Shown: positions 12,821 through 29,578 of the stretch, one piece after another
Layout: each line of letters opens with the position of its first letter
How positions within the stretch are numbered: position 1 is the stretch's first letter
Virus genome (UHGV): UHGV-0139776
Length of the DNA: 64,000 bases
From: a virus
Strand: one strand, 5' to 3'
Translations under genes and position numbers: made by a program
The notes under the pieces: model-generated
What the model was told of the DNA's origin: nothing
Database searches by the model: none
What the model saw: only the letters and a program-made list of their open reading frames with translations

Positions 12821-13344
12821 CGGTCAATGGGGCCATCGACTGGCTGAACCGCGCTTCTTATTTTTTCACACTTGATCCATCGCCAGACAATATGCGGCGC
12901 GTTGGTCGTGGCCGCCGTCGCCGTGGTGTTTGTTATTGCATGGCACTACGCGATGTTAAAGAACGTGAAGTCAGAGACGGCGTTCTGTGCTTCCGTCGTG
13001 TGGCTGAACGTGGCATGGAGCCAAAAAATACGAATTCTCCCGAGTGGTGGGCGTGGCGCTGGTCCGCACATTTCGGACTTTGCGAAGATGAGAATGAAAT
13101 TGCCAGCGGCAATAGTGCATATGGCGCTCTGAACCTGGCTTTCCATATCGGATTCAAACATGTCGCCCTGGTGGGCGTTGACGCTACACAAGAACCACGC
13201 GTTCACTCCGGCGGCACGCCAAAAAATCTAAGTCACCTGCCTTTGTTATTCCAGTCTGCGCGTGAACGGATTGACGTTGTTTCATGCGGGAAAATGGGAG
13301 GTATTCCGCAGATGACTCTTAAAGAATGGCTGAAGAATACATGA
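12718..13344 (+). CDS. GxGPS-motif protein, paralogue 2
   Basis: [10 protein letters not shown]...IIAVNG; overlaps paralogue 1 by about 100 nt. Confidence 0.45.
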
Positions 13345-14018
13345 TGGCACCCACAATTTATCACCGTATCGACGGTACCAAATACAGGAATGTCTGGGTT
13401 GTTGGTGATCTGCATGGTTGCTACACCAGACTGATGTCCGAACTCCATCGTGTGGATTTTGACCCGGCGCAGGATTTACTGATATCGGTCGGCGACCTTA
13501 TCGATCGCGGTACTGAAAATGTCGAATGTCTGGAACTATTGCAGATGCCCTGGTTCAGGGCAGTGATGGGGAACCATGAGCGGCTGATGATTGATGCGTT
13601 AAGTCCAGATGGCAACGTGAATAACTGGCTAATGAATGGCGGACAATGGTTCTTCATGCTGGACACTGATCAGGAAATATTAGCCTGGGCGCTGGTGGAG
13701 CTGGTAAAGCGTCTGCCCTATATCATTGAGTTGAACACCGGGCAAGAAACTATCGTTATAGCCCATGCCGACTATCCGGATAATGAATACCAATTCGGTA
13801 AGGAGGTGCCGCTTTTCAACGTTGTCTGGGCGCGCGAGCGTATCAGTGATTCGATGGATGATATTGGTGGCGAAATTTCGGGCGCAGATCGTTTTATCTT
13901 TGGTCACACTCCGGTGAAAAGCCCGAAGACATTCTGGAATCAGCAGTATATCGACACTGGTGCCGTATTTTGCGGAAACCTGACATTGATGAAAGTGAAA
14001 GGTGATGGTGCAGCATGA
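13326..14018 (+). CDS. ppp: Ser/Thr protein phosphatase (lambda PPase-like)
   Basis: metallophosphoesterase motifs GDLHG, GDLIDRG, GNHE. Confidence 0.85.
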
Positions 14019-14716
14019 AGATTGCTTTAGTTTTTCGCTCTGGTGGTGACTATAACGCTTCCGATGTGCAGTGGCTGGTTAATCAACTGCCAAAAGGCTA
14101 TGAAATTATTTGCCTGACAGACCTGAAGCGTTTACATGTACCTGGCGTCAAAGTTGTCCCATTGATCAACCAGTGGCAAAAGTGCCGTGGCTGGTGGGCG
14201 AAAATAGAGTTGTTCCGACCGGATATAACCGATGATCTGTTCTATCTGGATTTGGACACGGTTATTGCCGGTGATATACGCCCAATCCTAGAGCATCCAC
14301 CAACCAGCTTCACCATGCTTAGGGATTTTTACCATCCACAATATCGTGGCAGCGGTGCCCTGTGGATACCAAATAGTGTAAAAGCGCATATCTGGAGTGC
14401 ATTCTGGCAAGATCCGGAAGGTTGGATTGCTCGTTGTGTTACTACTGAATGCTGGGGTGATCAGGGGTTTTTGCGGAAGGTTATGGGTGATGATACACCA
14501 GCATTTCAGGATCTGTATCCAGGATGGTTTGTAAGTTACAAGGCCGATGTTGTGGAACCTGGTTCAAAATATGCGAGCGCGCGTTACTCCAGGGGGAATG
14601 GGACATTACCAAAGGACTGCCGAATAATCTTTTTCCACGGCAAACCGCGGCCTCGCGAAGTGTCAGAGGATTGGCTTCCCCTCATTAGCTCGTTTTTTGA
14701 GCGAGAATCAGAATAA
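14015..14716 (+). CDS. nucleotide-sugar transferase-like protein (DxD motif)
   Basis: MKIALVF N-terminus and [12 protein letters not shown] motif. Confidence 0.4.
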
Positions 14717-14717
14717 T

Positions 14718-14734
14718 ATTGCTCTAATAATTCC
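14718..14734 (+). promoter_or_regulatory. C1 operator-like site
   Basis: ATTGCTCTAATAATTCC immediately after the stop codon. Confidence 0.65.
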
Positions 14735-14742
14735 ATATTTTT

Positions 14743-14770
14743 AAAACGTGATGTACACTCATCACGTTTT
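14743..14770. terminator. bidirectional terminator
   Basis: perfect 11-bp stem AAAACGTGATG/CATCACGTTTT, 6-nt loop, A-run 5' and T-run 3'. Confidence 0.75.
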
Positions 14771-14783
14771 TTATTAGAGCAAT
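14767..14783 (-). promoter_or_regulatory. C1 operator-like site (inverted)
   Basis: reverse complement ATTGCTCTAATAAAAAA. Confidence 0.6.
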
Positions 14784-14797
14784 CCATAAGGTGCACT

Positions 14798-15016
14798 ATG
14801 TGGCCATTCCGACGGAAATATCACTACTGGCTGATCGCCTTTGTTACGCCGACCGGCGGTATCAGGCATGTCATCACCAGGTATCGCAACAAGAGACTCA
14901 CCTTAGCCAGAATTTTACAGGCTGCCATAGGTGAGGGACTGGATACAAATTGCGTAGTCCTTCCACCTTCATACTTAGGAAAAATGACCGAAGCACAAGC
15001 TAATACGGAACTTTGA
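14798..15016 (+). CDS. hypothetical small protein
   Basis: 72-aa ORF, weak support. Confidence 0.25.
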   Translation: MWPFRRKYHYWLIAFVTPTGGIRHVITRYRNKRLTLARILQAAIGEGLDTNCVVLPPSYLGKMTEAQANTEL

Positions 15017-15017
15017 A

Positions 15018-16280
15018 ATGAGCACTTCAGCACAAAACCAATCAATCGAAAATGTATCTATCCCTGACGTCCTGAATGCCGGTATCCCGGCCATTATCCA
15101 GAACATCCGGGCCGCGCAACGCCGCGTTAGTTGTGATGACCTCACAGCACGTTTTTTTGATAATGCGGTTCAGTCAGCGGAGATGCTTCACGCACAGCTT
15201 ATTGATGTTTATAACGCAGAAGCTGATAGCCATAACTCCCTGGTAGATGCAGCTGAAAATATGCAGTTGGATCTCGGTCTGAAGGGTAAAGAAATTGAAG
15301 AGCTTCAGCTGCAAATTGAACATTTGAAACGCCAGCAACAGGACGCGATCGACGATGCGACGCATGACGCCAACCAGCGTGCTGATAATGCCGAACGTAT
15401 AAGCATTGAGCTGGAAACAAAACTCAATGAAATGACCGCGATGGTTGAACTGCGGAACTCACAGATTTCAACTCTAAAATCTCAATATAAAGAGATCATG
15501 AAACTTGATCCTTTTAACCTTGAGAAACGCTATAACAAAGCTAAAAGCGAGCGACAGGAACTGCGTAAGCAGGTCGCCGACCTTAACCAACAGCTCAAAA
15601 AAACTATTAAAGATGCAAGCGAAGCGCGCGTGGCATTTGCTAATAAAAAAGCAGAGGTTACCGCGCTGGTTAATGAGAATGCCAAATTTGCGACGCTCAA
15701 GAAGGAAATGTATGGCATTACTGAGCGCCGTTTCCCTGCAAGCAAACTTCATCCGACGTTAGGGCAAATCTCCTTCTTCCCGCGCCTCCTGGCTTATGGG
15801 ATCTCATCGCCTAAAGAGTTCAATAACGAGCGTCCTTATATCGTTTCTAAGCTGGACTTTGCTTATCAGTTCTGCTGCGACATGGGCTATGCCATTGATA
15901 TCCGGATCAACGAATGGTTGATGCCAAACTTCCAGCCGTTGGCCATTTTCCGCGAGTTCCAGCCGGAAGGTTGGGTAGAGTTCTTCCATGAATTGATCTG
16001 TAAAGAGATGGAAAGCCGCCGCCCGGAACTGGTCCGTCGAGTTGAGTGGGCGCAAGAGGTTATGTTGGCAGAGGCAGAGCTGCCGTTCGAACCGGAATTT
16101 ATTGATGATCTGGCAGCTAAAGGGCTGCATACCCTGTTTGATGTGGTTACCCGCCGTCATGAGCAGTTGGTTGTCGAATTGGGTTTAGAGGAAACAGCGG
16201 CAAGAAGACTTCTCGATGTTTGCTATGCACGTAGCGATGCATGGGAAAAAGAGAACGGCGGCACTATTTACGTTCGCTGA
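15018..16280 (+). CDS. coiled-coil protein
   Basis: 420-aa ORF; long heptad-rich region 100-220 and a globular C-terminal domain. Confidence 0.55.
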   Translation: MSTSAQNQSIENVSIPDVLNAGIPAIIQNIRAAQRRVSCDDLTARFFDNAVQSAEMLHAQLIDVYNAEADSHNSLVDAAENMQLDLGLKGKEIEELQLQIEHLKRQQQDAIDDATHDANQRADNAERISIELETKLNEMTAMVELRNSQISTLKSQYKEIMKLDPFNLEKRYNKAKSERQELRKQVADLNQQLKKTIKDASEARVAFANKKAEVTALVNENAKFATLKKEMYGITERRFPASKLHPTLGQISFFPRLLAYGISSPKEFNNERPYIVSKLDFAYQFCCDMGYAIDIRINEWLMPNFQPLAIFREFQPEGWVEFFHELICKEMESRRPELVRRVEWAQEVMLAEAELPFEPEFIDDLAAKGLHTLFDVVTRRHEQLVVELGLEETAARRLLDVCYARSDAWEKENGGTIYVR

Positions 16281-16352
16281 CAGTTACAGTGTCACTTTTA
16301 ATGCTGGTGGAGTGCGCCCACCAGCATTTTTTTCGTCCAATGAGGAGGGCAT

Positions 16353-16859
16353 TTGAGTATTTTCAATAAACACGCACACCAGGAACGTCCGTATATCGTC
16401 ATAGTTGATATTGATGGAACAATATCAGAGGCAACTGAAGACAGACTGCATTTGCTTCCGCCACCAGGTAAAGGTGCATTAACAAAGGACTGGAACGAGT
16501 TTAATCTCGCCTGTGACACTGATACTCCCATAACTCCAGTTATTGATATTGTGCGCCAGTTATTTAACGTTTACACGGTCTGGTTTGTAACCGGGCGCTG
16601 TGAGATCGCAAGGGATAAAACACGAGCCTGGCTGCGGAAGTACGTAACAAACGGGGCTGAGCCTTTGCTATCTATGCGTCCTGCCACCGATGACAGAAAT
16701 GACGGCCCAGCAAAGATTGATCTCCTTAAGAAAATTGGTCTAAGTAAAATCGCGTTCGCGCTGGAAGATAAGATTGAAGTGGCGCGTGTTTTCAGGAGTC
16801 ACGGCGTACTTACGTTAATGGTCAGGGAGTATGAAAACGCGCTTCTCCATCAACAATAA
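16353..16859 (+). CDS. pap: HAD-superfamily phosphatase-like protein
   Basis: VDIDGTIS (DxDGT) catalytic motif. Confidence 0.65.
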   Translation: MSIFNKHAHQERPYIVIVDIDGTISEATEDRLHLLPPPGKGALTKDWNEFNLACDTDTPITPVIDIVRQLFNVYTVWFVTGRCEIARDKTRAWLRKYVTNGAEPLLSMRPATDDRNDGPAKIDLLKKIGLSKIAFALEDKIEVARVFRSHGVLTLMVREYENALLHQQ

Positions 16860-16875
16860 TTGCTCTAATAAATCT
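16859..16875 (+). promoter_or_regulatory. C1 operator-like site
   Basis: ATTGCTCTAATAAATCT overlapping the stop codon. Confidence 0.65.
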
Positions 16876-16957
16876 TGATTTTTAAAACAGAGAAAGTGAA
16901 AATAAAAACATGCCGCAAGGCGCGGCATGTATCCAATCAATCACAGGAGCTGAAAAT

Positions 16958-17044
16958 ATGAACACGGCATTCAAAATCATTATGGCCGCGATCTATTTCT
17001 GGCTGTTCTCTATCACTTTTGGCGGCATCGTCGCACATGGGTAA
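16958..17044 (+). CDS. 28-aa hydrophobic peptide
   Basis: RBS AGGAG 7 nt upstream; MNTAFKIIMAAIYFWLFSITFGGIVAHG; leads the downstream operon. Confidence 0.3.
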   Translation: MNTAFKIIMAAIYFWLFSITFGGIVAHG

Positions 17045-17053
17045 GGGGGATGC

Positions 17054-17458
17054 ATGAAAGGCGAAGTGAAAGAGCGCGGCATGATTTTCAACGATGAGAT
17101 GGTCCGGGCCATCATCGAAGGAAGGAAAACGCAGACGCGGCGGATAATGAAAAATCAGCCTGCGGAAGTTGGTCCAGAAGCACCAGTGATGGTTAGAAAA
17201 ATTGGTGCAGGTTTTCAGTGGTACGGGGCTGATGGTGTAAGCAGTGTCTTCAATTGCCCCTTTGGTATCGTCGGCGATCGAATTTGGGTTCGTGAAACAT
17301 GGGCGATATTAGGCAATGAGGATGGTTGTAGTGTGGACTGGAACGACAACCTTTGTCGTGGTGATGAGAAGAACGCAGCAAGGATTTATCGGGCCAGTTG
17401 TGAGCAAAAGCCTGGTGATTACGGCTTATGGTCGATACCGGCTGTGAACATCCTCTGA
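17054..17458 (+). CDS. ASCH-domain protein
   Basis: IIEGRKTQTRR ... GDRIWVRETW matches the ASCH GxKxxExR / GDxhxhxE pattern. Confidence 0.55.
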   Translation: MKGEVKERGMIFNDEMVRAIIEGRKTQTRRIMKNQPAEVGPEAPVMVRKIGAGFQWYGADGVSSVFNCPFGIVGDRIWVRETWAILGNEDGCSVDWNDNLCRGDEKNAARIYRASCEQKPGDYGLWSIPAVNIL

Positions 17459-18201
17459 CGTATCGCTTTATTCGTGAGGTTGTGAAGTTCTGGAACGTAC
17501 CGCTAACGGTGTTGCAGGTCGATATAAATCCAGAACTTGGGCAGCCAAATGGTTATACGGAATGGGGACCAAAGGATATTCAGACGCGAACGCCGGTGCT
17601 TAAACCGTTTATGGACATGGTTAAAAAGTACGGTACGCCATACATCGGCGGCGCGTTCTGTACTGACAGGCTAAAACTCACCCCTTTCACGAAATATTGC
17701 GATGACCATTTTGGGCGAGGGAATTACATCACATGGCTCGGTATTCGTGCGGACGAACCCCGTAGGCTGAAACCGAAACCGGGCGTCCGGTATCTTGCCG
17801 AGCTGTCAGATTTTGATAAGTCGGATGTTATCCGGTGGTGGCGAAAACAACCTTTTGATTTGCAAATCCCGGAGCACCTCGGGAACTGTGTTTTTTGCAT
17901 CAAAAAGTCAACGCAAAAGCTGGGGCTTGCATGTAAAGACGAACCAGGTCTGATGCGGGTTTTTAACGAACTGGTTACAGGCAAACACGTCAGGGATGGT
18001 CATCGCAGAACAGGTAAAGACGTTATGTACCGTGGTCACCTGACGCTTGACGGGATTGCCAGAATGTATGCCGACAGCGACTACAGAAATTTGTATCAGG
18101 CGATGGTGCAGGCCAAGCGGTTTGATACTGGTTCGTGTTCCGAATCATGTGAAATCTGGGGTGACCAATTGGAGTTGAAATTCGAAGAGGTAGTGGCATG
18201 A
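17428..18201 (+). CDS. PAPS-reductase-like protein lacking the N-terminal PP-loop
   Basis: begins at the DTG..P.TY motif that in CysH follows the PP-loop; LGIRADEPRR core present. Confidence 0.55.
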   Translation: MVDTGCEHPLTYRFIREVVKFWNVPLTVLQVDINPELGQPNGYTEWGPKDIQTRTPVLKPFMDMVKKYGTPYIGGAFCTDRLKLTPFTKYCDDHFGRGNYITWLGIRADEPRRLKPKPGVRYLAELSDFDKSDVIRWWRKQPFDLQIPEHLGNCVFCIKKSTQKLGLACKDEPGLMRVFNELVTGKHVRDGHRRTGKDVMYRGHLTLDGIARMYADSDYRNLYQAMVQAKRFDTGSCSESCEIWGDQLELKFEEVVA

Positions 18202-18401
18202 CAATCGTAAAAACCCATACCGGTACCGTGATCACCAAAGATGGCCCGCAGGTAAAAAAACTGCACCAAACAGAGCGGATGTGGGTCGTTGGCAAAAACG
18301 AGTTTTACCACAAAGAAACTGGACGCCGCCATTTTGCAGAAAATACGCGCCGCCGACTGCTGTTAGACACCATCAAGCCTATCGAGGTGAAGCATGTTTA
18401 A
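18198..18401 (+). CDS. hypothetical protein
   Basis: 67-aa ORF, start overlaps upstream stop. Confidence 0.4.
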   Translation: MTIVKTHTGTVITKDGPQVKKLHQTERMWVVGKNEFYHKETGRRHFAENTRRRLLLDTIKPIEVKHV

Positions 18402-18633
18402 ACAGAACGAAAAAGCTATCGCTCAAATTGCTGATTATATCCCGCGTGCGTGCCGGGGTATGCAGTTGCAGGAAGCCAAAGCGCGCCTGGAGAAAAAAAT
18501 TGCGCTCTATATTGATGACGGCTGTGATGCCGCCGTTCTTAACGAGGCGTTCGCACCAGCTCTTAACAGTCATACTCGGGAGTCTTTTTTTTCGTGCATC
18601 GCAGCGCAACTTCACCAAGGAGGCATCCAGTGA
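18394..18633 (+). CDS. hypothetical protein
   Basis: 79-aa ORF, coupled. Confidence 0.4.
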   Translation: MFKQNEKAIAQIADYIPRACRGMQLQEAKARLEKKIALYIDDGCDAAVLNEAFAPALNSHTRESFFSCIAAQLHQGGIQ

Positions 18634-19274
18634 GTAACCGTTTTTACATGATGTGCTTGCGTGAAACTGTGGGTAATAACGCCTCATTCCATTGCCATAA
18701 CGGCAATGGTTACAGTTCTGATATCGATCGCGCTCATGTTTACACGCTGGAAGAAGCCCAAAAAGCCTGGAATTGTGGGCGAGATATCGATCAGCCTGTT
18801 TGTGCCGATAGTGTGGATGCAATGGCTGTGTGGCACGTTGATTGCCAGTACATCCCTACAGAAAGCCTGATTGAGTCAGATTGCACTGCGTATGTGGCCT
18901 ACAAAAAAGGTAGCTGGAACGGCAACGATGTTTACTGGCTTCAACACGGTGGATTGCCAACAGATGACTTCAGTAAAGCGACCATCTTTAGCGTCGCCAA
19001 CAAAAACGAACCAGGAATAGTTTGGTTGCCATTTTCCATTGCTGATGCAGCAAAGCGCCGGACGTTCAATATCAATAAATTTAACCGCAGAACAATGGTT
19101 CAGGGCGCAGGTTTGGTCATGCCTGACTGGTTGAAAAAGCAGAACAGAAGAAAGAAGTCGCGAAGCGGGAAGGTGCGTTGGAATTGTCCGCATTGCGGAA
19201 AAATCACCTGGCAGTACAGCCCATATGATTTTGAAGGCTGTCGTGATTACAACTGTGAAGGATGGCGAGAATGA
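18630..19274 (+). CDS. zinc-ribbon protein
   Basis: GTG start 6 nt after AAGGAGG; C-terminal CPHCGK...CRDYNC cysteine cluster. Confidence 0.5.
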   Translation: MSNRFYMMCLRETVGNNASFHCHNGNGYSSDIDRAHVYTLEEAQKAWNCGRDIDQPVCADSVDAMAVWHVDCQYIPTESLIESDCTAYVAYKKGSWNGNDVYWLQHGGLPTDDFSKATIFSVANKNEPGIVWLPFSIADAAKRRTFNINKFNRRTMVQGAGLVMPDWLKKQNRRKKSRSGKVRWNCPHCGKITWQYSPYDFEGCRDYNCEGWRE

Positions 19275-19993
19275 CAATTGACTATCAGGTACTGCGTGAG
19301 GCGGCAGAAAAGGCAACACCAGACGAATGGGTCGCATTTATTTCGCCGGGTACTGGTACATATGCGGTGCATACACCCGGTGATAAACGATGTGGAGACG
19401 TTATCAAATGGCCCGGCTTTGATGGACAGGAAAACGCAGAGAATAACGCTCGTTATGTTGCCGCGTTCAACCCAAAGGTTGCACTGGAGCTGCTTGGTGA
19501 AATTAAGCGCCTGGAGGACACAAATATTGATGCTATGTGTCGAATTGCAGAGCTTGAGACTAATCTCGCGGCGCTGGTGGCGGAGAATGCGGGGCTTAAG
19601 GCCTTCAAAACCGCCGTTTATCAGCAGATGGGCGTCGGATGTGATGCTCCTGAATTCTCCATTACGGTAGGTTTGAGTAACTTACGTCGTTTTGCTGACA
19701 CACTCCACGCCATTGAGCGTGAGTTCTTTACCAAAGAGCTACCTGATGAAGAGCACGAAGGCGAAACATTCAATGAATGTCCACTTAGCTGGGGAATGAG
19801 CGTCGAACAGTACGTTTCCGAGTTTCGCAAATGCCTGGCTGAAGTGCGGGCGCAGGGATTGGAGATGTTTGCACAGAAATGTAACTCAAAATCCGAACAG
19901 TCATTTGCATCTGATATACGCGATAACTGGAAACTACTCGGTGAACATGCCACTGACTTTGCCGCAGAGCTTCGAAAAGGAGGCAACCAGTGA
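19262..19993 (+). CDS. Ea22-like coiled-coil protein, paralogue 1
   Basis: N-terminus TIDYQVLREAAEKAT shared with next gene. Confidence 0.5.
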   Translation: MARMTIDYQVLREAAEKATPDEWVAFISPGTGTYAVHTPGDKRCGDVIKWPGFDGQENAENNARYVAAFNPKVALELLGEIKRLEDTNIDAMCRIAELETNLAALVAENAGLKAFKTAVYQQMGVGCDAPEFSITVGLSNLRRFADTLHAIEREFFTKELPDEEHEGETFNECPLSWGMSVEQYVSEFRKCLAEVRAQGLEMFAQKCNSKSEQSFASDIRDNWKLLGEHATDFAAELRKGGNQ

Positions 19994-20742
19994 GCAAGAT
20001 TGACTATCAGGCACTGCGTGAGGCGGCAGAGCGTGCAATTCCGGCAATGGAACGCCTGTTAATGTTGCCAGTTGATGATGATCTGATAAGCGAACAGGAA
20101 CTTAAAGATTACGGCGTGGATATTGATGCGCTCAACGCCTTCAAATTTCTGACCGGACCAGAAACCGTGCTGGCGCTGCTGGATGAACGGGAAAGAAACC
20201 AGCAATACATAAAACGCCGCGATCAGGAGAACGAGGATATTGCGCTAACGGTAGGGAAGCTGAGAGTTGAGCTTGAGGAAGTAAAACAACACGCTGAAGA
20301 ATTATCCGAAACCAAGGCTGTTCGTAACCAATGGCGGCCAGATATTTGCCCAATAACCGGACGTGCATTTTTCATGTGGATTGAGCATCCAACATTGGGA
20401 AATGTGCCGACATATGGTGGCCCATTAGATAGTTACACCATTCCAACAAAGGACGGTGACGGTGAGTTTTCATGTGAGCGTTACGATCATGATTTTGGCG
20501 GTTGGGTAGAAAGCGAATGTCTTGGGGTATATCTGATTGATGATAGAGAACAATGCAGGGTCTACGAACTGGAGGAACGCGTTAAGGAACTGGATGCTCG
20601 GGAAATATCGCTCCCGGAACGTAGCAGCATGCTTCATCGAACAGATTTTCACGATGATTACCAAACGGTAATGGCATACAAAGTTTCTGAAGTCATCGCT
20701 GCAATCCGCGCCGCAGGCATTCGCATCAAAGGAGGTGAGTAA
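19990..20742 (+). CDS. Ea22-like coiled-coil protein, paralogue 2
   Basis: N-terminus KIDYQALREAAERAI. Confidence 0.5.
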   Translation: MSKIDYQALREAAERAIPAMERLLMLPVDDDLISEQELKDYGVDIDALNAFKFLTGPETVLALLDERERNQQYIKRRDQENEDIALTVGKLRVELEEVKQHAEELSETKAVRNQWRPDICPITGRAFFMWIEHPTLGNVPTYGGPLDSYTIPTKDGDGEFSCERYDHDFGGWVESECLGVYLIDDREQCRVYELEERVKELDAREISLPERSSMLHRTDFHDDYQTVMAYKVSEVIAAIRAAGIRIKGGE

Positions 20743-20915
20743 TGCGTGTGGCATGTATCGGCTTGTTACCGTACCCGACTCGTTTTTGGGCTTCTGCGCT
20801 AATTGCAAAGCCGTATGTCCTGATGGCTGACAACATCATCCCGGCACCAAAGCGCCGCCATACCGGTATTGCAGCGGCACGACGAGCAGCAAAGAGACGC
20901 AGGAGAGCAAAGCGA

Positions 20916-21092
20916 TGAAAAACCGTAAGGCAAAACGACTTTTTTTACAGCGACCTGTGCGTGTGGTGGAGCTGGTTATTAGCAACCATAAGATAGCGGT
21001 ACTCCATCCATTTGGTCAGGTGGCTTTTGCCGCAAAGCGTAAGCCTACTGCGTCACAGAACAGGCGGAAGAAAGGGTACGCTGTAAGATGAA
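20916..21092 (+). CDS. small basic protein (58 aa)
   Basis: MKNRKAK N-terminus paralogous to next ORF; below track cutoff; frame hand-read. Confidence 0.3.
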
Positions 21093-21276
21093 AAACCGTA
21101 AAGCAAAGATTCTGTTAGTTCGTAGAAACGCTCCTGGCGTCTGGCAGTGGGTGAGACTCAGCAACCGACGGATGGGGTTGATGAAATATTACGGGATGAT
21201 GGATTGTGGTTTTTGCAAAAAGCCCAGCGCGGCGCAAAACCGCTGGAAAAACCACTTGCGCACTAAAGGAGAGTGA
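21088..21276 (+). CDS. small basic protein (62 aa)
   Basis: MKNRKAK N-terminus; ATGA overlap with previous ORF. Confidence 0.4.
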   Translation: MKNRKAKILLVRRNAPGVWQWVRLSNRRMGLMKYYGMMDCGFCKKPSAAQNRWKNHLRTKGE

Positions 21277-21277
21277 T

Positions 21278-21793
21278 ATGGCGTTAACACACCGCGAACT
21301 CTGTCAGATTGCGTATAAGTTCCTTAAGCGCAACGGGTTCAAGGTTTGTTTTCATGACCGCTTTATAGCTGTAACCAGTACCGGAGAACAGCCAGATGCT
21401 ATGGGATTCAGAAATTCAGCATCATGCCTGATAGAGGCGAAGTGTTCTCGTGCTGACTTGTTGGCAGATAGGAAAAAGCGTTTTCGTAAAAATCCATCTC
21501 TTGGAATGGGCGACTGGCGATTCTTTATTAGTGAGCCGGGAATTATTTCAGTTGAGGATTTACCACCTGGCTGGGGATTACTTCACGTTGTTAACGGAAG
21601 AGTACGGAAAGTACATGGGTGGCCCAAGGGTAATTGCTGTTGGGGTAATCCTGACGATAAGCCATTTACTGGAAATAAGCAGGTTGAATGCGATTACATG
21701 TTATCTGCATTAAGGCGCATGGAGTTGAGAGGGCACCTTAATGAAATATATGACGGTGTAATTGTTAATAAGAAAGAAGGAAACGCGGCATGA
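21278..21793 (+). CDS. PD-(D/E)xK-like hypothetical protein
   Basis: PDAMGF...LIEAKCS resembles D...ExK nuclease core; ATG at 21278 after AGGAG. Confidence 0.4.
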   Translation: MALTHRELCQIAYKFLKRNGFKVCFHDRFIAVTSTGEQPDAMGFRNSASCLIEAKCSRADLLADRKKRFRKNPSLGMGDWRFFISEPGIISVEDLPPGWGLLHVVNGRVRKVHGWPKGNCCWGNPDDKPFTGNKQVECDYMLSALRRMELRGHLNEIYDGVIVNKKEGNAA

Positions 21794-22593
21794 TCACTAT
21801 TACCAAAGAGCGACTGCTGACAATCAAGCAGTGGCGCGAAACATACGGACCTGGTAGCAACGTTGTACTGCCAGCAGAAGAAGCGGAAGAACTGGCACGA
21901 ATTGCTCTGGCATCGCTGGAAGCAGAACCGGTTGCAGTAAACGACGACATGGCTTACGCATTCCATCACGCATTGTCAGATTCATCGCTAGGCGCTGATG
22001 AAGTAGAGGAAATTAAGGCCGGTTTGCGTGCTGCCTTTGCCAACGTCACTATCCAACCAGAGCCGGTAGTGCCGGATGAAATCGAGTTAGCAATTGAAAA
22101 CCTCAAGCAGAAATTAGTGGAATGCAATCGCTATAACTACTGCGCAGATGCAGTGAAGAACGTTGAGGATGCCTGCCACGCTGCCATGCTTCAGGGTAGC
22201 CAACCTGTAAGCCAAACTTACAAGTTGCCAGTTAATACACCTTGCCAAGATGCGCCAGCCCATATCTGGCTGCAAACAGCTGGAGTATGGCCAGAAGATG
22301 GCGAGTTAAGCGAATTAACGTGGTGCAGCCACAATCAGCACCATGATGACACGCTATATGTTCGAGCTGACCTTGTGAATGGCAACTATCCGGTAACTCC
22401 GGATGGTTGGATAAGCTGTAGTGAGCGAATGCCCGCTCAAGATGATTGGATTTTAATTTATTCAAAGCACGGCGAGTATATGGCAGGACAGGTACAAGGG
22501 GAATACGTGGAGTTGAGCGACGGCACTTTATCGTGGTTAGGGAACGCCTTGTACTGGATGCCGCTACCAGAACCGCCGCAGGAGGCGAAATGA
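21790..22593 (+). CDS. DUF551-like phage protein
   Basis: C-terminal W...ERMP...YWMPLPEPP signature. Confidence 0.5.
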   Translation: MITITKERLLTIKQWRETYGPGSNVVLPAEEAEELARIALASLEAEPVAVNDDMAYAFHHALSDSSLGADEVEEIKAGLRAAFANVTIQPEPVVPDEIELAIENLKQKLVECNRYNYCADAVKNVEDACHAAMLQGSQPVSQTYKLPVNTPCQDAPAHIWLQTAGVWPEDGELSELTWCSHNQHHDDTLYVRADLVNGNYPVTPDGWISCSERMPAQDDWILIYSKHGEYMAGQVQGEYVELSDGTLSWLGNALYWMPLPEPPQEAK

Positions 22594-22850
22594 TGGATGT
22601 AAAAGAGAAGGTTTTGCAGGTGATGCGTTCCCGGGCTGCCCTGCAAGATAAAGCTCTCGGCGGGGAATATCCATTCAGGATGGCAACCTGGAATCTGCGG
22701 TTGGCAATGGAGAAGGAATTTCCTGATGAAGAATGGCGTTCGGCAGATTTGCGCAAAATTCTTATGGAGATGGCTAAAGATGGAACAGTATCCAAAGATA
22801 CCCATGCCAGCCGGATTGGTCAGGCGGTATGGAGACTGGAGGTGAGATAA
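22590..22850 (+). CDS. hypothetical protein
   Basis: 86-aa ORF, ATG overlaps previous stop. Confidence 0.4.
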   Translation: MMDVKEKVLQVMRSRAALQDKALGGEYPFRMATWNLRLAMEKEFPDEEWRSADLRKILMEMAKDGTVSKDTHASRIGQAVWRLEVR

Positions 22851-22935
22851 TGAGCTGGCCTGAAGCATTCGCAACGGTAGGAATTGTGATGGCGGCAGCA
22901 CTGGGTTTGTATTCAATTTGTCGCTGGTGGTAACG

Positions 22936-23169
22936 ATGGGAAAATTAACTTTTGTAGTCGAATTTGAGGATGGTAAAGAGCCACCTGTTAGCGCCAATCT
23001 TGATGTTGCTGGTGGCAGGCTTGTTTCGGTTCTATTTGGTGACTACCGAGATGATTTCTTCCAACCAGAAGAAGTTGATGTGGTGCGAGAGGCATTAAAC
23101 GAGTTAAGTGTTGATAACGATGATGCTCATGCGGAAATCATCCAAAAAATGGAGCTGCTAACTCACTAA
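22936..23169 (+). CDS. hypothetical protein
   Basis: 77-aa acidic ORF. Confidence 0.35.
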   Translation: MGKLTFVVEFEDGKEPPVSANLDVAGGRLVSVLFGDYRDDFFQPEEVDVVREALNELSVDNDDAHAEIIQKMELLTH

Positions 23170-23347
23170 ATTATCAATTATGGTGCTATCACCTACGACA
23201 CCGAGAGAAAATTTATAATGTCAAAAGTAAATGTTTTGATTTTTTCAGCAATTGTTGGCTTTGGTTTTACTGCCGGAGTGCAGATTTATATTACGTGGGA
23301 AAAAATCATCAACTACGCATGGAGTTGTTTTATTAAGTGAGGTAAGT

Positions 23348-23641
23348 ATGTGGAGAGGTAATAGTCATGGCAAAAGCCAGATGATACTTACCGGATATCA
23401 GCTCGACCACAAAACCAATAAATCACGTTCAGTATATTTGCTTCGCCACAATAGCCGCGTAAGGAATACCGTACTGGAGCAAAATCTGACCGTTGAAATG
23501 GATAATTACGGGGGCTTCAAGCCAACAATATCGCTTGATGATTTTCCTCGTGGTTTAAGCGAAAGAGAAGCAATGCTGAAATTAGCAGAATGGCTACAAA
23601 GATTAAGCATTGCTATTGAAGATAACTGGTCTGAACCTTAA
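23348..23641 (+). CDS. hypothetical protein
   Basis: 97-aa ORF. Confidence 0.35.
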   Translation: MWRGNSHGKSQMILTGYQLDHKTNKSRSVYLLRHNSRVRNTVLEQNLTVEMDNYGGFKPTISLDDFPRGLSEREAMLKLAEWLQRLSIAIEDNWSEP

Positions 23642-23647
23642 ATTTAT

Positions 23648-24022
23648 ATGATGACACTAAAACATTTTCTTGACCGCCCATTATGGGCGGCAGCCGCAGG
23701 CTATGACTTTAATTATATGGATTGCATGTCTTATACTGCCAATGCATACGACCATTCGTTCAGCCTGCTGTTTAATTCTTTAAGAATATTGCCGGAAACA
23801 GAAGTTGGAGAGCTTCATTTATGGCTATTGGGCTTTATCGCGGCTGTCGTTGGTATTGCTGTATGGCCTTTTATTTTCTGGCTGGTGGCTGTTGTAGTGT
23901 GGTTTAAGTGCAAGACATACCGGAAAAAGTATTTCTTAGGTGATGGAATGACTGATATTGCCAAAATGAACATTGAAAAATGGATTAAGGAATGTGAAAA
24001 GAAATGGCGCAAAAAGAAATGA
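23648..24022 (+). CDS. membrane protein
   Basis: two predicted TM helices (LWLLGFIAAVVGIAVWPFIFWLVAVVVWF), lysine-rich tail. Confidence 0.45.
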   Translation: MMTLKHFLDRPLWAAAAGYDFNYMDCMSYTANAYDHSFSLLFNSLRILPETEVGELHLWLLGFIAAVVGIAVWPFIFWLVAVVVWFKCKTYRKKYFLGDGMTDIAKMNIEKWIKECEKKWRKKK

Positions 24023-24654
24023 CCAGAATCACTGAAGAGCGTATATCAGAGATTATTTCCCGTATCGAAATGTATGGTCACGGTGCTGGATATACGGCAG
24101 ATGAAGTATTGGAAATAGCCCAGCAGATGCTGGCCTTGAGACAAAAAGAGCAACATGAAAGTAATACGTGTAGATTGAATTTTGAGCAGTGGCTGGAACA
24201 GCAACGCGGAAAAATCGATGTGGACTGTGGTTGTGTGTCCACTGAAACATTCATGCACTGGCTGCGGGTAGCTTACGAGGCTGGCAACTATCCGGATATT
24301 CCGGATAGTTCGGTGCCAGCGCCAGGAAAGGGCGTCACCGGTGAACGTATCCGCATTAAGCCGCATGTTTATCGCGAACTGGTTAACCGTCTCCACGATA
24401 CAGCGATCAAGTGTGCTGGCACCCAGCAATTACGAGAAAGAATTAGCCGAGTTTTGGGCGACGTTATTACGCCAGATCATCATAAACAAGCCGAGAAAAG
24501 TGGCTTGGAAAGGTGTCACCTTGAGGCGGCATTAAACATTAAGCCGGGGCATACGCTTGGCATTATTGATGCACTATTGGTTCATAAGATGGCCAGGGCT
24601 TTATTGCCGCTGGTGGCTGAAAAGCATGAGGCGGACCATGCCAACGAAAGCTGA
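24004..24654 (+). CDS. hypothetical protein
   Basis: 216-aa ORF. Confidence 0.45.
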   Translation: MAQKEMTRITEERISEIISRIEMYGHGAGYTADEVLEIAQQMLALRQKEQHESNTCRLNFEQWLEQQRGKIDVDCGCVSTETFMHWLRVAYEAGNYPDIPDSSVPAPGKGVTGERIRIKPHVYRELVNRLHDTAIKCAGTQQLRERISRVLGDVITPDHHKQAEKSGLERCHLEAALNIKPGHTLGIIDALLVHKMARALLPLVAEKHEADHANES

Positions 24655-24922
24655 GTTACAGGCGCGCATAGAGATTCTTGAAAAAGAGAATGCGAGTCTA
24701 AAAGGAATGCTGGCGCGGGCGGAAAGGGAATTATCAGGAAAATTATTGCCAGAAGAGCTGCCACCAGCAGATATACCTGATCGAGTGTCCTGGTGGATGA
24801 AGTATTTCCGTGCACCGTGGGAGGCGTTTTGGTGCTACGACCATCGCAGATGGTGTGATGAGCTTGATAGCAGTTTCCCCTATTTTGCGGAAGGGAACTC
24901 TTGCCCTGAATGTAGGAGTTAA
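24638..24922 (+). CDS. coiled-coil/Cys-rich protein, paralogue A
   Basis: C-terminus WEAFWCYDHRRWCDELDSSFPYFAEGNSCPEC. Confidence 0.4.
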   Translation: MPTKAELQARIEILEKENASLKGMLARAERELSGKLLPEELPPADIPDRVSWWMKYFRAPWEAFWCYDHRRWCDELDSSFPYFAEGNSCPECRS

Positions 24923-25230
24923 TGATGACCGGCGAGCTTTATTTTAAAATGGCACGGGAGCGGCGTGTGCATCTGGATCGGATATTTCATCTCCAGAAGA
25001 GAGTAGAAGAACTGGAACGTCGTCTGAACTGTTATCCTGTTGATATGGTGTCTGCAATACCGCCGATTCCAATAGAAATGCAGATCCGCCTATGGATGGA
25101 AGAATATGGAATGCCGTGGGAGATATTTTTCTGCTTCGACCATAAACAGTGGGTAGATGAGCTGGATAATAGTTTCCCATATTTCACAGAGAACACATGC
25201 CCAGTATGCAGGAAGAGAAAGGAATCATGA
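24922..25230 (+). CDS. coiled-coil/Cys-rich protein, paralogue B
   Basis: C-terminus WEIFFCFDHKQWVDELDNSFPYFTENTCPVC. Confidence 0.45.
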   Translation: MMTGELYFKMARERRVHLDRIFHLQKRVEELERRLNCYPVDMVSAIPPIPIEMQIRLWMEEYGMPWEIFFCFDHKQWVDELDNSFPYFTENTCPVCRKRKES

Positions 25231-25484
25231 TTCTCCCGCGTCCGCGCCCACCGAAAATGGAGAAAAAAAGGATGATTAATGGCTATCAGCCGCATACCCC
25301 AGAAATACAAGGGAGCGAGGGGCTTAAACCACCACTAGCACCACGGAACGCATCATTACGGCGAGAGTTAATATTAACTTTGTCGCCCGTTCTGGCTGCC
25401 CGCCAGGATTGGGTAAGTAATGATGACCTGGCAGAAAAAATCACATCGCTGGTGGATAAAATTCTGCATAAAGCTGATCTCTGA
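25197..25484 (+). CDS. hypothetical protein
   Basis: 95-aa ORF upstream of the lipoprotein gene. Confidence 0.4.
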   Translation: MPSMQEEKGIMILPRPRPPKMEKKRMINGYQPHTPEIQGSEGLKPPLAPRNASLRRELILTLSPVLAARQDWVSNDDLAEKITSLVDKILHKADL

Positions 25485-25497
25485 TCACCATGCTAAA

Positions 25498-25525
25498 ATC
25501 CCCTCAATTCACAGAGGGGATTTTT
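25498..25525 (+). terminator. rho-independent terminator
   Basis: ATCCCCTC-loop-GAGGGGAT followed by TTTT. Confidence 0.6.
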
Positions 25526-25529
25526 GTCT

Positions 25530-25796
25530 ATGTTGTATAGAGTTTTATGGAAAAGCGTTATTGTCGGCGCGATACTGGCTATATCTGGGTGTGCAATGGT
25601 GCAATACAACGACGGTGAAAAGGTAAGCATACAGTCAGATGGTTGGTATGGCCTTGATAGCTTGCAAAAAACCGCAGATAAAGCCTGTCAGCAATATGGG
25701 AAGTCTAAAGCCGTATATCAGCATAGCGCGAACGCTAATCCCCATCTCGCTCCCGGTTCGGGTGTTCAGAATACCATCTGGAAATGTGAGCTTTAA
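25530..25796 (+). CDS. lipoprotein
   Basis: signal peptide with lipobox AISGC. Confidence 0.6.
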
Positions 25797-25798
25797 AC

Positions 25799-26038
25799 AT
25801 GAGCAACTGCAATATTGCAGCTAAAAGCCAGGAAGAGCGAGACAAGGTGAACGTAGACCTTGCCGCCAGCGGCGTTGCTTACAAAGAACGACTGAATATA
25901 CCGGTGATTGCAGAGCAGGTGGCCCGTGAGCAACCGGAAAACCTGCGCGCCTATTTCATGGAACGGCTACGGCACTACAGGCAGTTAAGCCTCCAGTTGC
26001 CAAAAGGGAGCGATCCGGCATATCAGAAAACAGAATAG
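25799..26038 (+). CDS. hot: DNA polymerase III theta-subunit homologue
   Basis: [39 protein letters not shown] closely parallels E. coli HolE. Confidence 0.85.
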
Positions 26039-26049
26039 TTGTTAGGCTA

Positions 26050-26412
26050 TTACGCAATGCCCGCGCCATTCTTAGCGGGTTTTAAGCCATATTCACCGTT
26101 GTAGAAATTACTCATGTTCCATTCATTGGGAAGCTCTTTTCTGTCCAATGTATAGTGGCGCACGATATAACGATCTTCATCTTCTTCGATGGACAGGCGG
26201 ACATAGCCAATGTGAATTACCGATACGGGCGGCGTCCGTATTGCATAGATGTCGCGGAGATATACCGGTAGCTCGACAAATGCATCAGGTGTATCTGTGA
26301 TGCTCATTTTTTCACAGTATTCATATAACGCATCGTTGATATCGTTAAGAGATTCATGATCGTATATTTCCAGGTAATTACCGCGATCGCGATGGTACTC
26401 GATTTTAGCCAT
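26050..26412 (-). CDS. hypothetical protein
   Basis: 120-aa ORF coupled to upstream gene. Confidence 0.45.
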   Translation of the reverse strand: MAKIEYHRDRGNYLEIYDHESLNDINDALYEYCEKMSITDTPDAFVELPVYLRDIYAIRTPPVSVIHIGYVRLSIEEDEDRYIVRHYTLDRKELPNEWNMSNFYNGEYGLKPAKNGAGIA

Positions 26413-26997
26413 TCAAAATCCCCTGTTATCGTTTTGCATTTCTCTAATCCGGTTCAGAACTACTTCGTGCTGGGCTTGGATAGCGGCTTTTTCGTTTTCA
26501 AGCCGGGCAATAGACATCTCTAATTCTTTGCTGTACCAGGCGAGTTGGGCCAGGTTCATCTGGTTGTGGTCGAGAGTTGGAGACACTTCGACGCGATCCC
26601 TTTCTTCTTGCTTTAATGAGAAGAGATTCATCTCATCCCTTGAGGAAAATTCAGCAACAATTTCTTGTTGATGATCCGGTCGCTGCGGCATCCTCGCCAG
26701 TATAAATGGCGGTTCTTTTGAAAACATAAATGTCGGTTCAGAACGTGTTTTCACCCATCTAGCCTGCTGTCTTTCGGCAAGTTCACAGGCTTCATCATAG
26801 TTATTTGCCAAACCAAGCACGGATGGACGGTCCCACGCGCCACCATTCAGACAATAAACAACAATTTTCCCGTCAGGTTGTGTAACCCCATAGGGATGGT
26901 CCCACCAGGCGTCCAGCTGAGCTTTAGAGCGTTTCTCGTTAGGAGTGCAGTCAAAATTTTTGGGCAATACAGGATCGAGAGGAATGCGATTAGGCAT
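26413..26997 (-). CDS. hypothetical protein, divergent from humD
   Basis: 194-aa ORF; promoter region shared with the LexA box. Confidence 0.45.
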   Translation of the reverse strand: MPNRIPLDPVLPKNFDCTPNEKRSKAQLDAWWDHPYGVTQPDGKIVVYCLNGGAWDRPSVLGLANNYDEACELAERQQARWVKTRSEPTFMFSKEPPFILARMPQRPDHQQEIVAEFSSRDEMNLFSLKQEERDRVEVSPTLDHNQMNLAQLAWYSKELEMSIARLENEKAAIQAQHEVVLNRIREMQNDNRGF

Positions 26998-27134
26998 AGC
27001 TAATTCCTTATTAACTGATTGGCAACGAGGTTACGCTGATCCGTTGGTGATGAATAGTAGCAAAGAGCACAAAATCATCAGCGGTGGTTGATGTACGTAA
27101 CGCGTTTGCACCAAAGGTGTCTCTTTAATGTATA

Positions 27135-27150
27135 CTGTATAAATGAACAG
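27135..27150. promoter_or_regulatory. LexA box CTGT-N8-ACAG
   Basis: TACTGTATAAATGAACAGTA, 22 bp upstream of humD. Confidence 0.8.
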
Positions 27151-27171
27151 TATTGTTGAGGTAAAAACGCT

Positions 27172-27561
27172 ATGGGCTTCCCTTCTCCTGCGGCGGATTA
27201 TGTTGAAAGCCGAATTTCTCTTGATCAGCAACTAATCAGGCATCCATCAGCAACCTACTTCATGCGGGCAGCTGATAGCCATCACCGTGAGGGAATATTG
27301 CAGGGTGCTTTGCTGGTGGTTGATTCCTCGCTTACTCCGGTTGATGGTTCTCTGCTTGTGTGCGCTATGGAGGGTGAATATCGCATAAAGAGATACCGAA
27401 AGTATCCGCGCCAGCACCTGGAGGATTTAAGCACCGGGAAGAAAGAGGCGTTACCAGTAGATGACGATGGTTACACGGGTAGTAATGCTGTTTTTGGTGT
27501 GATCACTCATGTCATCAATGATGCCCGAAGTGGGGAATTTGATGATTGTCCGGTGATTTAA
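27172..27561 (+). CDS. humD: UmuD-like SOS mutagenesis protein
   Basis: S24 peptidase/UmuD' fold ending ...VFGVITHVIN. Confidence 0.85.
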   Translation: MGFPSPAADYVESRISLDQQLIRHPSATYFMRAADSHHREGILQGALLVVDSSLTPVDGSLLVCAMEGEYRIKRYRKYPRQHLEDLSTGKKEALPVDDDGYTGSNAVFGVITHVINDARSGEFDDCPVI

Positions 27562-27633
27562 GCTGCAAAGTGCTGGTGCTTTATGCCTGTGAAGTTTATA
27601 ATTGTGTACACATAACGAGTACACGAGGTGTTT

Positions 27634-27855
27634 ATGCAATCCATTAACTTCCGTACCGCGCGCGGCAACCTTTCTGAAGTGCTCAACAATGTTGAAGCCG
27701 GGGAAGAGGTTGAAATCACCCGCAGAGGCCGTGAGCCAGCAGTAATTGTCAGCAAGGCTACTTTCGAAGCCTACAAAAAAGCGGCGCTGGATGCTGAATT
27801 TGCATCCCTGTTTGACACCCTGGACTCCACCAACAAGGAACTGGTTAACCGATAA
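27634..27855 (+). CDS. phd: Phd antitoxin
   Basis: 73-aa [39 protein letters not shown]. Confidence 0.9.
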
Positions 27856-28235
27856 TGAGGCATATATCACCGGAAGAACTTATTGCGCTTCATGATGCGA
27901 ATATAAACCGCTACGGCGGCCTGCCGGGAATGTCAGATCCGGGTAGGGCAGAGGCCATTATCGGGAGAGTTCAGGCCAGAGTTGCCTACGAAGAGATCAC
28001 CGACCTTTTCGAAGTCTCCGCCACCTACCTGGTGGCTACAGCGAGAGGGCATATATTCAATGATGCCAATAAGCGTACCGCGCTAAACAGTGCGCTGTTA
28101 TTTCTACGCCGTAACGGGGTGCAAGTATTTGATTCACCTGAACTGGCAGACCTTACCGTAGGGGCTGCGACCGGAGAGATATCTGTATCTTCTGTCGCCG
28201 ACACGTTACGTAGATTGTATGGTTCCGCGGAGTAG
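27855..28235 (+). CDS. doc: Doc toxin (Fic-fold kinase)
   Basis: 126 aa; ATGA overlap with phd; Fic-like motif [11 protein letters not shown]. Confidence 0.9.
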
Positions 28236-28239
28236 ATTA

Positions 28240-28419
28240 ATGGCACGTAAATACAACAAATTGTCCCGTGAAGCGTTAAAGATGCTTCTTGATGGCGTGA
28301 GTCGCCGCAAGGTAAAGCAATACCTGGTTGGTAAGCAAATTGGTGCCAGGACCGCTATTGCTGTGTTATGCCGTCAGGAAATGGTTGTGCTTAAACAGAG
28401 AATGCCGGGCAGCAGATAA
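28240..28419 (+). CDS. small basic protein downstream of doc
   Basis: ATG 5 nt after doc stop. Confidence 0.4.
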   Translation: MARKYNKLSREALKMLLDGVSRRKVKQYLVGKQIGARTAIAVLCRQEMVVLKQRMPGSR

Positions 28420-28446
28420 AGCCCAATCAGTGATGAAAGGTGTGAT

Positions 28447-29490
28447 GTGAAAGCCGTAATTACTCCCTTTGTACAGAAAGAGCTTGGCCTCGCCACGTTC
28501 AAAGTGGATCAGGAGGTCAGAAAGCTGGTGGAGGCTGGCCGTAAATTTATTATGGAGCCGGTGCCGCGTGAGTTAATCGAGCACATGGAAGACGGCCTCG
28601 TTGTTACCGAGCAAACCATGGCAACAAATGAGGCGTTGCAGCCGTTTTTTAACAGCGATGAACTGTTTCGCCGTATTGGTGGAATTGACGCGCTGGTGGC
28701 GTGGTTGCGCAGGAAAGAGGGACAATGCCAGGCCGCAGATCGTAGCTGGTGTGACAACCATATTGTCCACGCAGAACGAGACAATAGCGCGGTGTTGTTG
28801 TGCTGGCATCACGATAACCATTACCGGATGCGTGGTTTTAATGAGCTGAAAGAAACGCTGCATAATAATCGCGTTAACTGGATACTGGATGTCGCCCGTC
28901 AGGAAATGGGGCTTTCAGATGGCCATGATTTAAGTATTCAGGAACTGTGCTGGTGGGCTTTCATGCGCAACATGATGCACCTGATGCCGGAAGAAGTTTG
29001 CCGTATATCAATAAATAAGATGAAAGCCGCAACGCAGGATAGCGGACCTCTGAAAGAGGCGGATATTCGCCCGTATGACGATCGCGCTACAGCATATGTT
29101 CAGATGATGGAAGAACGCGCCGCGCCGATGCGTGCAAAAGTATGCCCTGTGGATGTTGACTCCGACCCTGGCATGGCGCATTTCAAAATACCAAAACTGC
29201 AATCGCTAAAATTACCTGAGTACATGGACTTTGTTGCTTCCCGTCCATGCTGTGGGTGTGGAGCTGCGGGAGCTGGCGCTCACATTACGCCTTATATCGT
29301 TCGTCATAGTCGATTATGCGCGCATGACATTTATGCGATTCCTCTGTGCCAGTCATGCCAGCGTGATATTGAGCGTGACCGCGATAATTGGGAGAAAACA
29401 CACGGCAGGCTGGCGATGCATCAACGATTGTTCTTTGATTACGCGCTTGGAGTCGGCGCTATCACAAGTCATTCGTCGAGTGTTAGATAA
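28447..29490 (+). CDS. hypothetical Cys/His-rich protein
   Basis: 347-aa ORF; [13 protein letters not shown] and CQSC motifs. Confidence 0.5.
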
Positions 29491-29491
29491 A

Positions 29492-29508
29492 ATTGCTCTA
29501 ATGTGTTG
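29492..29508 (+). promoter_or_regulatory. C1 operator-like site
   Basis: ATTGCTCTAATGTGTTG directly after the stop, upstream of lpa. Confidence 0.6.
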
Positions 29509-29578
29509 CTATTTCTTTAATCGAGGGTATTATATTCCACGTTGATTAGTTGACATGGGCTAATCAGTAGGTGACAGG

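Follow-up and report, generated by a model that had tools for sequence, protein, structure and literature searches.

A gene island at a variable locus of a P1-like phage-plasmid is probably a repressor-controlled mosaic of exchangeable lambdoid-type accessory cassettes

We analysed a run of small genes in the virus genome UHGV-0139776, using a stretch of 64,000 nucleotides (henceforth the window) which, on sequence grounds, belongs to a P1-like phage-plasmid. A preliminary description of this DNA had proposed that positions 18198–25230 hold an island of about 20 tightly coupled, small accessory genes of lambdoid type, with several pairs of paralogues among them. Our results indicate that the island is probably a mosaic of exchangeable lambdoid-type accessory cassettes, carried as the cargo of a single long early operon under repressor control. 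The locus in which it lies is an already known hot spot, where the island is a new mosaic, typical rather than unusual; as judged by alignment, it is reference P1 that is a rare deletion derivative at this locus.

The gene run itself stood up to closer analysis. Within 18198–25230 we found 19 plus-strand open reading frames (ORFs), named g01–g19 (Table 1), which are followed in the same run by a twentieth, g20 (25227–25484), and the genes singled out in the preliminary description were found where it had put them, to within a few bases. Start sites were picked by Shine-Dalgarno-like sequences and by the annotation of near-identical plasmids; for the first of the two Ea22-like genes, which is indeed present, 19271 is a likelier start than the 19262 originally given. 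Counting from gB, the truncated gene that abuts the island, to g20, 17 of the 20 junctions are overlaps (of the ATGA, GTGA or TAATG type) or spacings of at most 2 nucleotides, and the only gap of more than 10 nucleotides is one of 48 (23169–23218). All 20 ORFs are intact, with their start/stop coupling kept. The island and its flanking genes (26 ORFs in all, 17054–26997) were scanned against Pfam, PHROGs, NCBIfam and PADLOC. Given that 19 of the 20 island ORFs (the exception being g20) match a PHROG family, and that pairwise ratios of nonsynonymous to synonymous substitution rates (dN/dS) against relatives were mostly 0.02–0.3, i.e., most island genes are under purifying selection, we consider these ORFs to be real genes rather than chance occurrences. 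The least secure calls are g14 (40 amino acids) and, weakest of all, g12 (27 amino acids). Among the products are basic peptides (g06–g08; isoelectric point, or pI, of 11–12), acidic proteins (g13, pI 4.2; g10, pI 4.4; g04 and g05, pI 4.7–4.8) and predicted membrane peptides (g12, g14 and g16). The segment at 23001–24000, which contains g14, g15 and g16, has a guanine-plus-cytosine content of 0.396, compared with about 0.48 in its flanks; this suggests a separate origin of the g14–g16 cassette group.

The interval first proposed captured this gene run; the unit to which the run belongs appears to start further upstream, at the operator and promoter (16831) or, counting genes, at 17054, and to end at 25524. 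We infer that the natural unit, 16831–25524, is one C1-controlled early operon, since an operator of the P1 C1 repressor lies upstream of the genes, no convincing promoter was found between them and a terminator-like hairpin lies at their end. The operator, which is overlapped by a promoter-like site, is one of 13 C1-operator-like sites in the window (0.27 expected) and occupies the same position as Op88/OpmgT of P1, as judged by the P1 annotation and by co-linearity. Across 16500–27200 there were 6 promoter-like sites, compared with 16.9 ± 4.1 in shuffled sequences, and on the plus strand they were found only at the start of the operon and inside g19, where 9 of 12 consensus positions matched. 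The hairpin directly 3′ of g20 is the probable end of the operon; no RNA family was matched in an Rfam scan of 16000–27500 (E ≤ 0.1). We picture the operon as running from the C1 operator and promoter (16831–16875) through two truncated genes and 20 translationally coupled small genes to the hairpin at 25495–25524: C1 would silence it in the plasmid prophage, and it would be transcribed as a unit upon infection or induction.

This arrangement bears directly on the idea that the island serves prophage defence or superinfection exclusion, i.e., that a nuclease, small membrane proteins and a downstream lipoprotein shield the lysogen from other phages. Candidates for all of these roles can be named: the PD-(D/E)xK fold predicted for g09, the predicted membrane peptides g12, g14 and g16, and the lipoprotein gene g21, which adjoins the island directly downstream. 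However, with a C1 operator ahead of the genes and no internal promoter better than the site in g19, the island genes should be off in the lysogen, and in lambdoid phages their counterparts belong to an early operon on the pL side that is likewise repressed. PADLOC, moreover, had no match for g01–g20, its sole match being a weak one (SspD, 25.7 bits) to the truncated gB upstream. We regard a role in protecting the lysogen as very unlikely.

Alignment to reference P1 set the island within a P1-type backbone. P1 matches the window at 98.4% upstream of the island (8566–17439) and at 94.5% downstream of it (26430–34388), while P1-like plasmids match 34000–58000 at about 98%. Past 17439, P1 matches only 24273–24619 and the gene hot before the downstream backbone resumes. 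The island is, as had been supposed, larger than the corresponding P1 interval, and P1, rather than carrying the same set of genes in the same order, is without almost all of it. We compared the scar in P1 (P1 positions 8489–9558) with window 17054–17440 and 24272–24615. In the P1 protein PmgT, residues 1–232 of an ASCH-like protein run on into 77 residues translated out of frame from g17 DNA, and PmgU corresponds to residues 104–204 of g17 (95% identity). This points to a deletion as the reason why P1 lacks the island, with PmgT and PmgU as fusion remnants of the flanking genes. The P1-type junction was found in 5 PLSDB plasmids and 3 P1 phage records, whereas island DNA was found in 782 PLSDB plasmids, which suggests that the large island is usual and laboratory P1 the outlier. 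The label 'putative morphogenetic function' attached to pmgT and pmgU in P1 was considered as a guide to function and rejected, these ORFs being fusion remnants and non-essential; indeed, P1 pmgT, pmgU, pmgV, upfN, upfO and hot are all non-essential (PMC10695390).

It could be argued from the P1 deletion that the island is decaying, dispensable DNA that is heading for deletion in other elements too. P1, which is fully viable, has lost the entire island, homologous genes in P1 and lambda are non-essential, frameshifted copies are found in a related plasmid, and in the element studied here the two genes upstream of the island (gA and gB) have been truncated by a 457-bp deletion. This reading is contradicted by the intactness of all 20 ORFs, with their coupling preserved, and by the purifying selection seen in most of the genes (dN/dS well under 1); in addition, the gene families are maintained across wide taxonomic ranges, and the plasmids that keep island DNA outnumber those with the P1-type deletion by 782 to 5. 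As an account of the island, decay is hardly credible.

In P1-like phage-plasmids, the interval between pmgT and humD has been described as 'highly variable region 8', and in JL22 an ea22-containing cluster stands in place of pmgT (PMC9603915). The island occupies this slot, i.e., it lies on a P1-type backbone, with pap and the C1 operator Op88 upstream and hot downstream, and the variability of the region is seen in the gene content, which, in a presence/absence matrix covering six loci, differs among otherwise near-identical P1-like elements. Where the island differs from other P1-like region 8 loci is in its exact combination of cassettes, which was present in no record searched: none carried the whole island, and the best coverage was 54% among phages, 81% among plasmids and 77% among complete E. 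coli genomes. P7, three P1-like plasmids and an Stx2c phage carry the cassettes themselves, variously combined, at 95–100% amino-acid identity. P7, for example, has g03, g05 (82% identity), g09 and part of g17, and island modules are also found in SJ46, RCS47 and hundreds of P1-like plasmids. Even adjacent genes can part company: in other P1-like plasmids g19 and g20 are found apart, the breakpoint falling precisely at the g19/g20 junction.

A link to lambdoid phages was provided by the Stx2c phage, which carries g03, g05–g09 and g11 at 96–100% amino-acid identity between erf (encoding an ERF recombinase) and int at the attachment site, i.e., in its early-left operon. This position corresponds to the exo-xis/ea region of lambda (and to the ea genes of Stx phages and P22), so that the Stx2c phage holds actual genes of the island there. 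(In the same phage, Stx2_5044, an IS3-family element with HTH_Tnp_1 and rve ORFs lies at 8293–9503, where it separates the g06 and g07 homologues.) The island resembles the lambdoid exo-xis/ea region in consisting of small, non-essential, early, repressor-controlled and mosaic genes, Ea22 and DUF551 proteins included, but differs from it in that it belongs to a P1-type plasmid prophage, would be controlled by C1 rather than by CI and pL-N, and does not lie beside int and xis. Counterparts of lambda orf60a, orf61, orf63, orf73 and ea8.5 were not among the Pfam and PHROG matches of the island. In lambda, ea22, ea8.5 and orf60a/61/63 are non-essential (PMC10695390), and exo-xis genes are described as being expressed early and as biasing the outcome between lysis and lysogeny. 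By analogy, the non-essential cassettes of the island would be drawn from the pool of the lambdoid early-left (exo-xis/ea) region, and their products would act early in development, modulating host physiology and the choice between lysis and lysogeny. Such tuning is, in our judgement, the most likely role of the island products.

We found that exchange of cassettes has left traces at the level of DNA. Homology breakpoints against relatives lie at 19307, 19961–20030, 21935, 22380, 24916 and 25226–25230, and at several of them short, near-identical DNA repeats are found inside otherwise diverged genes. A 32-nucleotide joint at the 5′ end of g04, for instance, has a second, 97% identical copy in g05, and a 21-nucleotide repeat is shared by the 5′ ends of g07 and g08. 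A palindromic motif of 25 nucleotides, present in g10 and g17, encodes a linker (GNYP..PD) that precedes the C-terminal domains of both proteins; it is conserved in DNA while its flanks diverge, and the P1 deletion junction falls immediately 5′ of its copy in g17. The motif may act as a joint in recombination or, alternatively, as a binding site. Taken together with the breakpoints, these features are consistent with cassettes being swapped by recombination at gene boundaries, at Ea22-type 5′ ends and at the palindromic linker before C-terminal domains. The preliminary description had called the region fast-evolving. This is apt for the shuffling of cassettes at short joints, but not for point evolution, given the low dN/dS values of the genes: cassettes swap while the g03 and g09 families keep 48–88% identity across Enterobacterales genera, so the island appears to be fast-shuffling rather than fast-mutating.

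Modularity is also apparent within single proteins, most clearly in those of Ea22 type. Two Ea22-like paralogues, a DUF551-like protein and a PD-(D/E)xK-like protein had been proposed, and each of these assignments found support. Both g04 and g05 exceed the cut-off (27 bits) of the Ead/Ea22 family PF13935, with 72.2 and 102.8 bits, respectively, and the matches span only residues 5–113 of g04 and 2–108 of g05. In BLASTP comparisons the likeness between the two proteins was N-terminal only (80% identity over 15 residues), the C-terminal parts being unrelated. Published work portrays Ea22 as a mosaic protein in which a conserved N-terminal segment and a coiled coil are combined with a C-terminal domain that varies and, in some variants, is DUF551; the lambda protein is tetrameric and pro-lysogenic, and a nuclear magnetic resonance structure of its C-terminal domain has been solved (PMC10834534). 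The two island proteins resemble lambda Ea22 in their N-terminal and central parts and carry differing C-terminal domains, as Ea22 variants do, but neither has a sequence match in PDB to the solved lambda C-terminal domain. DUF551 itself was found at the C-terminus of g10 (PF04448; residues 206–264, 43.2 bits, cut-off 22).

The model of g09 has a restriction-endonuclease-like core fold with a D...(D/E)xK motif, which places the predicted structure in the PD-(D/E)xK nuclease superfamily, while no Pfam or NCBIfam model matches the protein. Its closest solved structure is SPO1766 (3dnx), which itself has no assigned function and from which g09 differs by an extra C-terminal helical part; at the level of sequence, searches of g03, g04, g05 and g09 against solved structures (PDB) gave nothing significant. 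The g09 protein is free-standing here, but in three Salmonella proteins (P0091, P0093 and P0103) the domain is part of a fusion in which it follows an Ead/Ea22 N-terminus. Because these fusions exist, we consider the g09 domain to be one of the interchangeable C-terminal domains of Ea22. A bolder extension would make the Ea22-type N-terminus a general oligomerising scaffold for swapped effector domains (the g09 nuclease, DUF551), with the linker AACTATCCGG-N5-CCGGATAGTT as a dedicated joint, and/or would place a new anti-defence or host-takeover factor among the conserved proteins without assigned function, the named candidates being g03 (confident predicted fold, no solved relative) and the acidic g13. 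We offer this extension as a long shot.

Three further assignments concerned a zinc-ribbon protein and two pairs of paralogues, and these too were borne out. In g03, four C-terminal cysteines (C186, C189, C204 and C209) are invariant among 30 homologues and sit in short beta-hairpins of a confident model, forming two CxxC-type knuckles that are kept family-wide, so that the C-terminus is a predicted zinc ribbon. The homologues are 48–97% identical and range from E. coli to Acinetobacter; a search of the predicted fold against solved structures found no relative. A note on the P7 homologue, 'putative tyrosine phosphatase', was unsupported by Pfam or by the fold search. The two MKNRKAK basic peptides, g07 and g08, are 37% identical over 54 amino acids (E = 2.5e-8) and share a PHROG family (phrog_1380). 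The two Cys-rich paralogues, g18 and g19, are 52% identical over 54 amino acids (E = 1.5e-20), share phrog_3797 and belong to a family in which the CxxH...CxxC set is kept in nearly all intact members; in one member, P0272, the N-terminus of g18 is naturally joined to the body of g19. In databases the g18 family is labelled 'antitoxin PHD', a label that derives from source names and was rejected: BLASTP of P1 Phd against g18 gave E = 19, and no match to the Pfam Phd/YefM family was found.

Library searches assigned no function to any island gene. Every PHROG match among the 26 ORFs was annotated 'unknown function', except for PAPS reductase on the flanking gB; NCBIfam gave no match, and in Pfam only Ead_Ea22 (twice) and DUF551 (once) were above threshold. 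The preliminary description had suggested scanning for anti-restriction and anti-CRISPR families, as such islands often hide anti-defence or host-takeover genes. No known anti-restriction, anti-CRISPR or anti-defence family was found in the general libraries used (PHROGs and NCBIfam), no dedicated anti-defence library having been searched, and we found no literature on an anti-defence role of DUF551 or of the P1 region. An anti-defence island, in which most genes would encode early inhibitors of host restriction, CRISPR or abortive infection, would fit the early, repressor-controlled position, the many small proteins (several of them, i.e., g13, g10, g04 and g05, strongly acidic) and the variation in gene content among close relatives. 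It fits less well with the uninformative PHROG and NCBIfam results (an absence weakly established without a dedicated library of anti-defence hidden Markov models), with the lack of sequence relatives of g03, g04, g05 and g09 among solved structures, and with genes that are conserved rather than diversifying, as the dN/dS values and the g03 family indicate. The known anti-restriction functions of P1, moreover, are virion proteins (Dar) encoded elsewhere, and a 'phage protein DarA' feature is present under the P1-like backbone matches. We consider it unlikely that most of the island is devoted to anti-defence; some of its products may act in conflicts with mobile elements or host defences.

Several points weigh against our preferred reading of the island as the cargo of a C1-controlled early operon of lambdoid-type cassettes. 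The functional analogy with exo-xis draws on two to four of the 20 proteins (those with Ea22 or DUF551), the other 16 or so having no characterised relative. Transcription as a single unit and control by C1 are deduced from the sequence and the annotation of P1, the scans for promoters and terminators giving consensus matches only. Finally, some decay is under way, as both leading genes of the operon have been truncated.

Table 1 Features of the predicted operon, the island and its surroundings (positions refer to the window).
Feature	Position	Strand	Description
Promoter-like site	16831-16860	+	Overlaps C1 operator; whole feature 16831..16875
P1 C1-repressor operator	16859-16875	+	ATTGCTCTAATAAATCT; 1 mismatch to consensus; equivalent of P1 Op88/OpmgT
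gA	17054..17458	+	N-terminal 128-codon fragment of ASCH-like pmgT-type gene; phrog_874
gB	17428..18201	+	PAPS-reductase family, without first 34 codons; phrog_33262, phrog_424, weak PF01507
g01	18198..18401	+	67-aa basic protein; phrog_1226, E 1.9e-42
g02	18394..18633	+	79-aa protein; phrog_1344
g03	18630..19274	+	214-aa EaA-type protein, predicted C-terminal four-Cys zinc ribbon; phrog_2457; homologue labelled EaA
g04	19271..19993 (alternative start 19262)	+	Ead/Ea22-like; PF13935
32-nt joint, g04 5′ end	19277..19308	+	Second copy at 19999-20030 in g05, 97% identical
g05	19990..20742	+	Ead/Ea22-like, C-terminal domain unlike g04; PF13935
g06	20742..20918	+	58-aa very basic peptide, pI 12; phrog_13831
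g07	20915..21091	+	MKNRKAK basic peptide, g08 paralogue; phrog_1380
g08	21088..21276	+	MKNRKAK basic peptide, g07 paralogue; phrog_1380
g09	21278..21793	+	171-aa protein, PD-(D/E)xK nuclease fold in model
g10	21790..22593	+	Acidic, Ea22-type N-terminus, C-terminal DUF551; PF04448, phrog_60
Palindromic 25-nt motif	22384..22408 (g10), 24286-24310 (g17)	+	DNA repeat, AACTATCCGG-N5-CCGGAT(G/A)GTT
g11	22590..22850	+	86-aa protein; phrog_2814
g12	22850..22933	+	27-aa hydrophobic peptide
g13	22936..23169	+	77-aa acidic protein, pI 4.2; phrog_3876; dN/dS 0.02-0.07
g14	23218..23340	+	40-aa predicted membrane peptide; phrog_5525
g15	23348..23641	+	97-aa protein; phrog_1258
g16	23648..24022	+	124-aa predicted membrane protein, low-GC segment; phrog_2638
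g17	24004..24654	+	216-aa protein, C-terminal half is counterpart of P1 PmgU; phrog_21459
g18	24638..24922	+	94-aa helix + CxxH...CxxC protein, g19 paralogue; phrog_3797
g19	24922..25230	+	102-aa g18 paralogue; phrog_3797
g20	25227..25484	+	85-aa protein, last of the run, beyond the interval first proposed; no family match
Terminator-like hairpin	25495..25524	+	11 pairs + T run, directly 3′ of g20
hot	25799-26038		

The preliminary description had set the island against a pap-to-lipoprotein interval of P1; P1 pap encodes an acid phosphatase and lies further upstream, and the gene that abuts the island is gB, a truncated member of the PAPS-reductase family. Compared with plasmid pW619, a 457-bp deletion with its junction at 17434–17439 has fused approximately codon 128 of the ASCH-like gene (243 amino acids when intact) to codon 35 of gB, and the SFSGGRTS PP-loop of gB has been lost. 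Because the deletion truncates both genes and removes the PP-loop, gA and gB are probably both inactive here. Among P1-like region 8 loci this deletion is private to the element studied. Beyond hot, on the minus strand at 26050–26997, lie two convergent genes: gC, which shares 96% identity with P7 Upf93.6, and gD, which shares 95% identity with P1 Lxr; as Upf93.6 is absent from P1, this is a further small difference in content within the same variable region. Finally, tRNA genes for Asn-GTT, Thr-TGT and Met-CAT are found at 1434–1587 and 3224–3299, as expected in a P1-type genome.

Through this locus, the gene pool of P1-like plasmids is directly connected with that of Stx and lambdoid prophages. 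Within the locus, the families of g03, g09 and the putatively zinc-binding g18/g19 pair are broadly conserved, are under purifying selection and have neither a characterised member nor a Pfam or NCBIfam model, which makes them reasonable targets for functional screens. For P1 itself, the annotated genes pmgT and pmgU look like the scar of a deletion, and since the laboratory standard P1 is atypical here, the content of this locus in wild P1-like phage-plasmids can hardly be read off from it.

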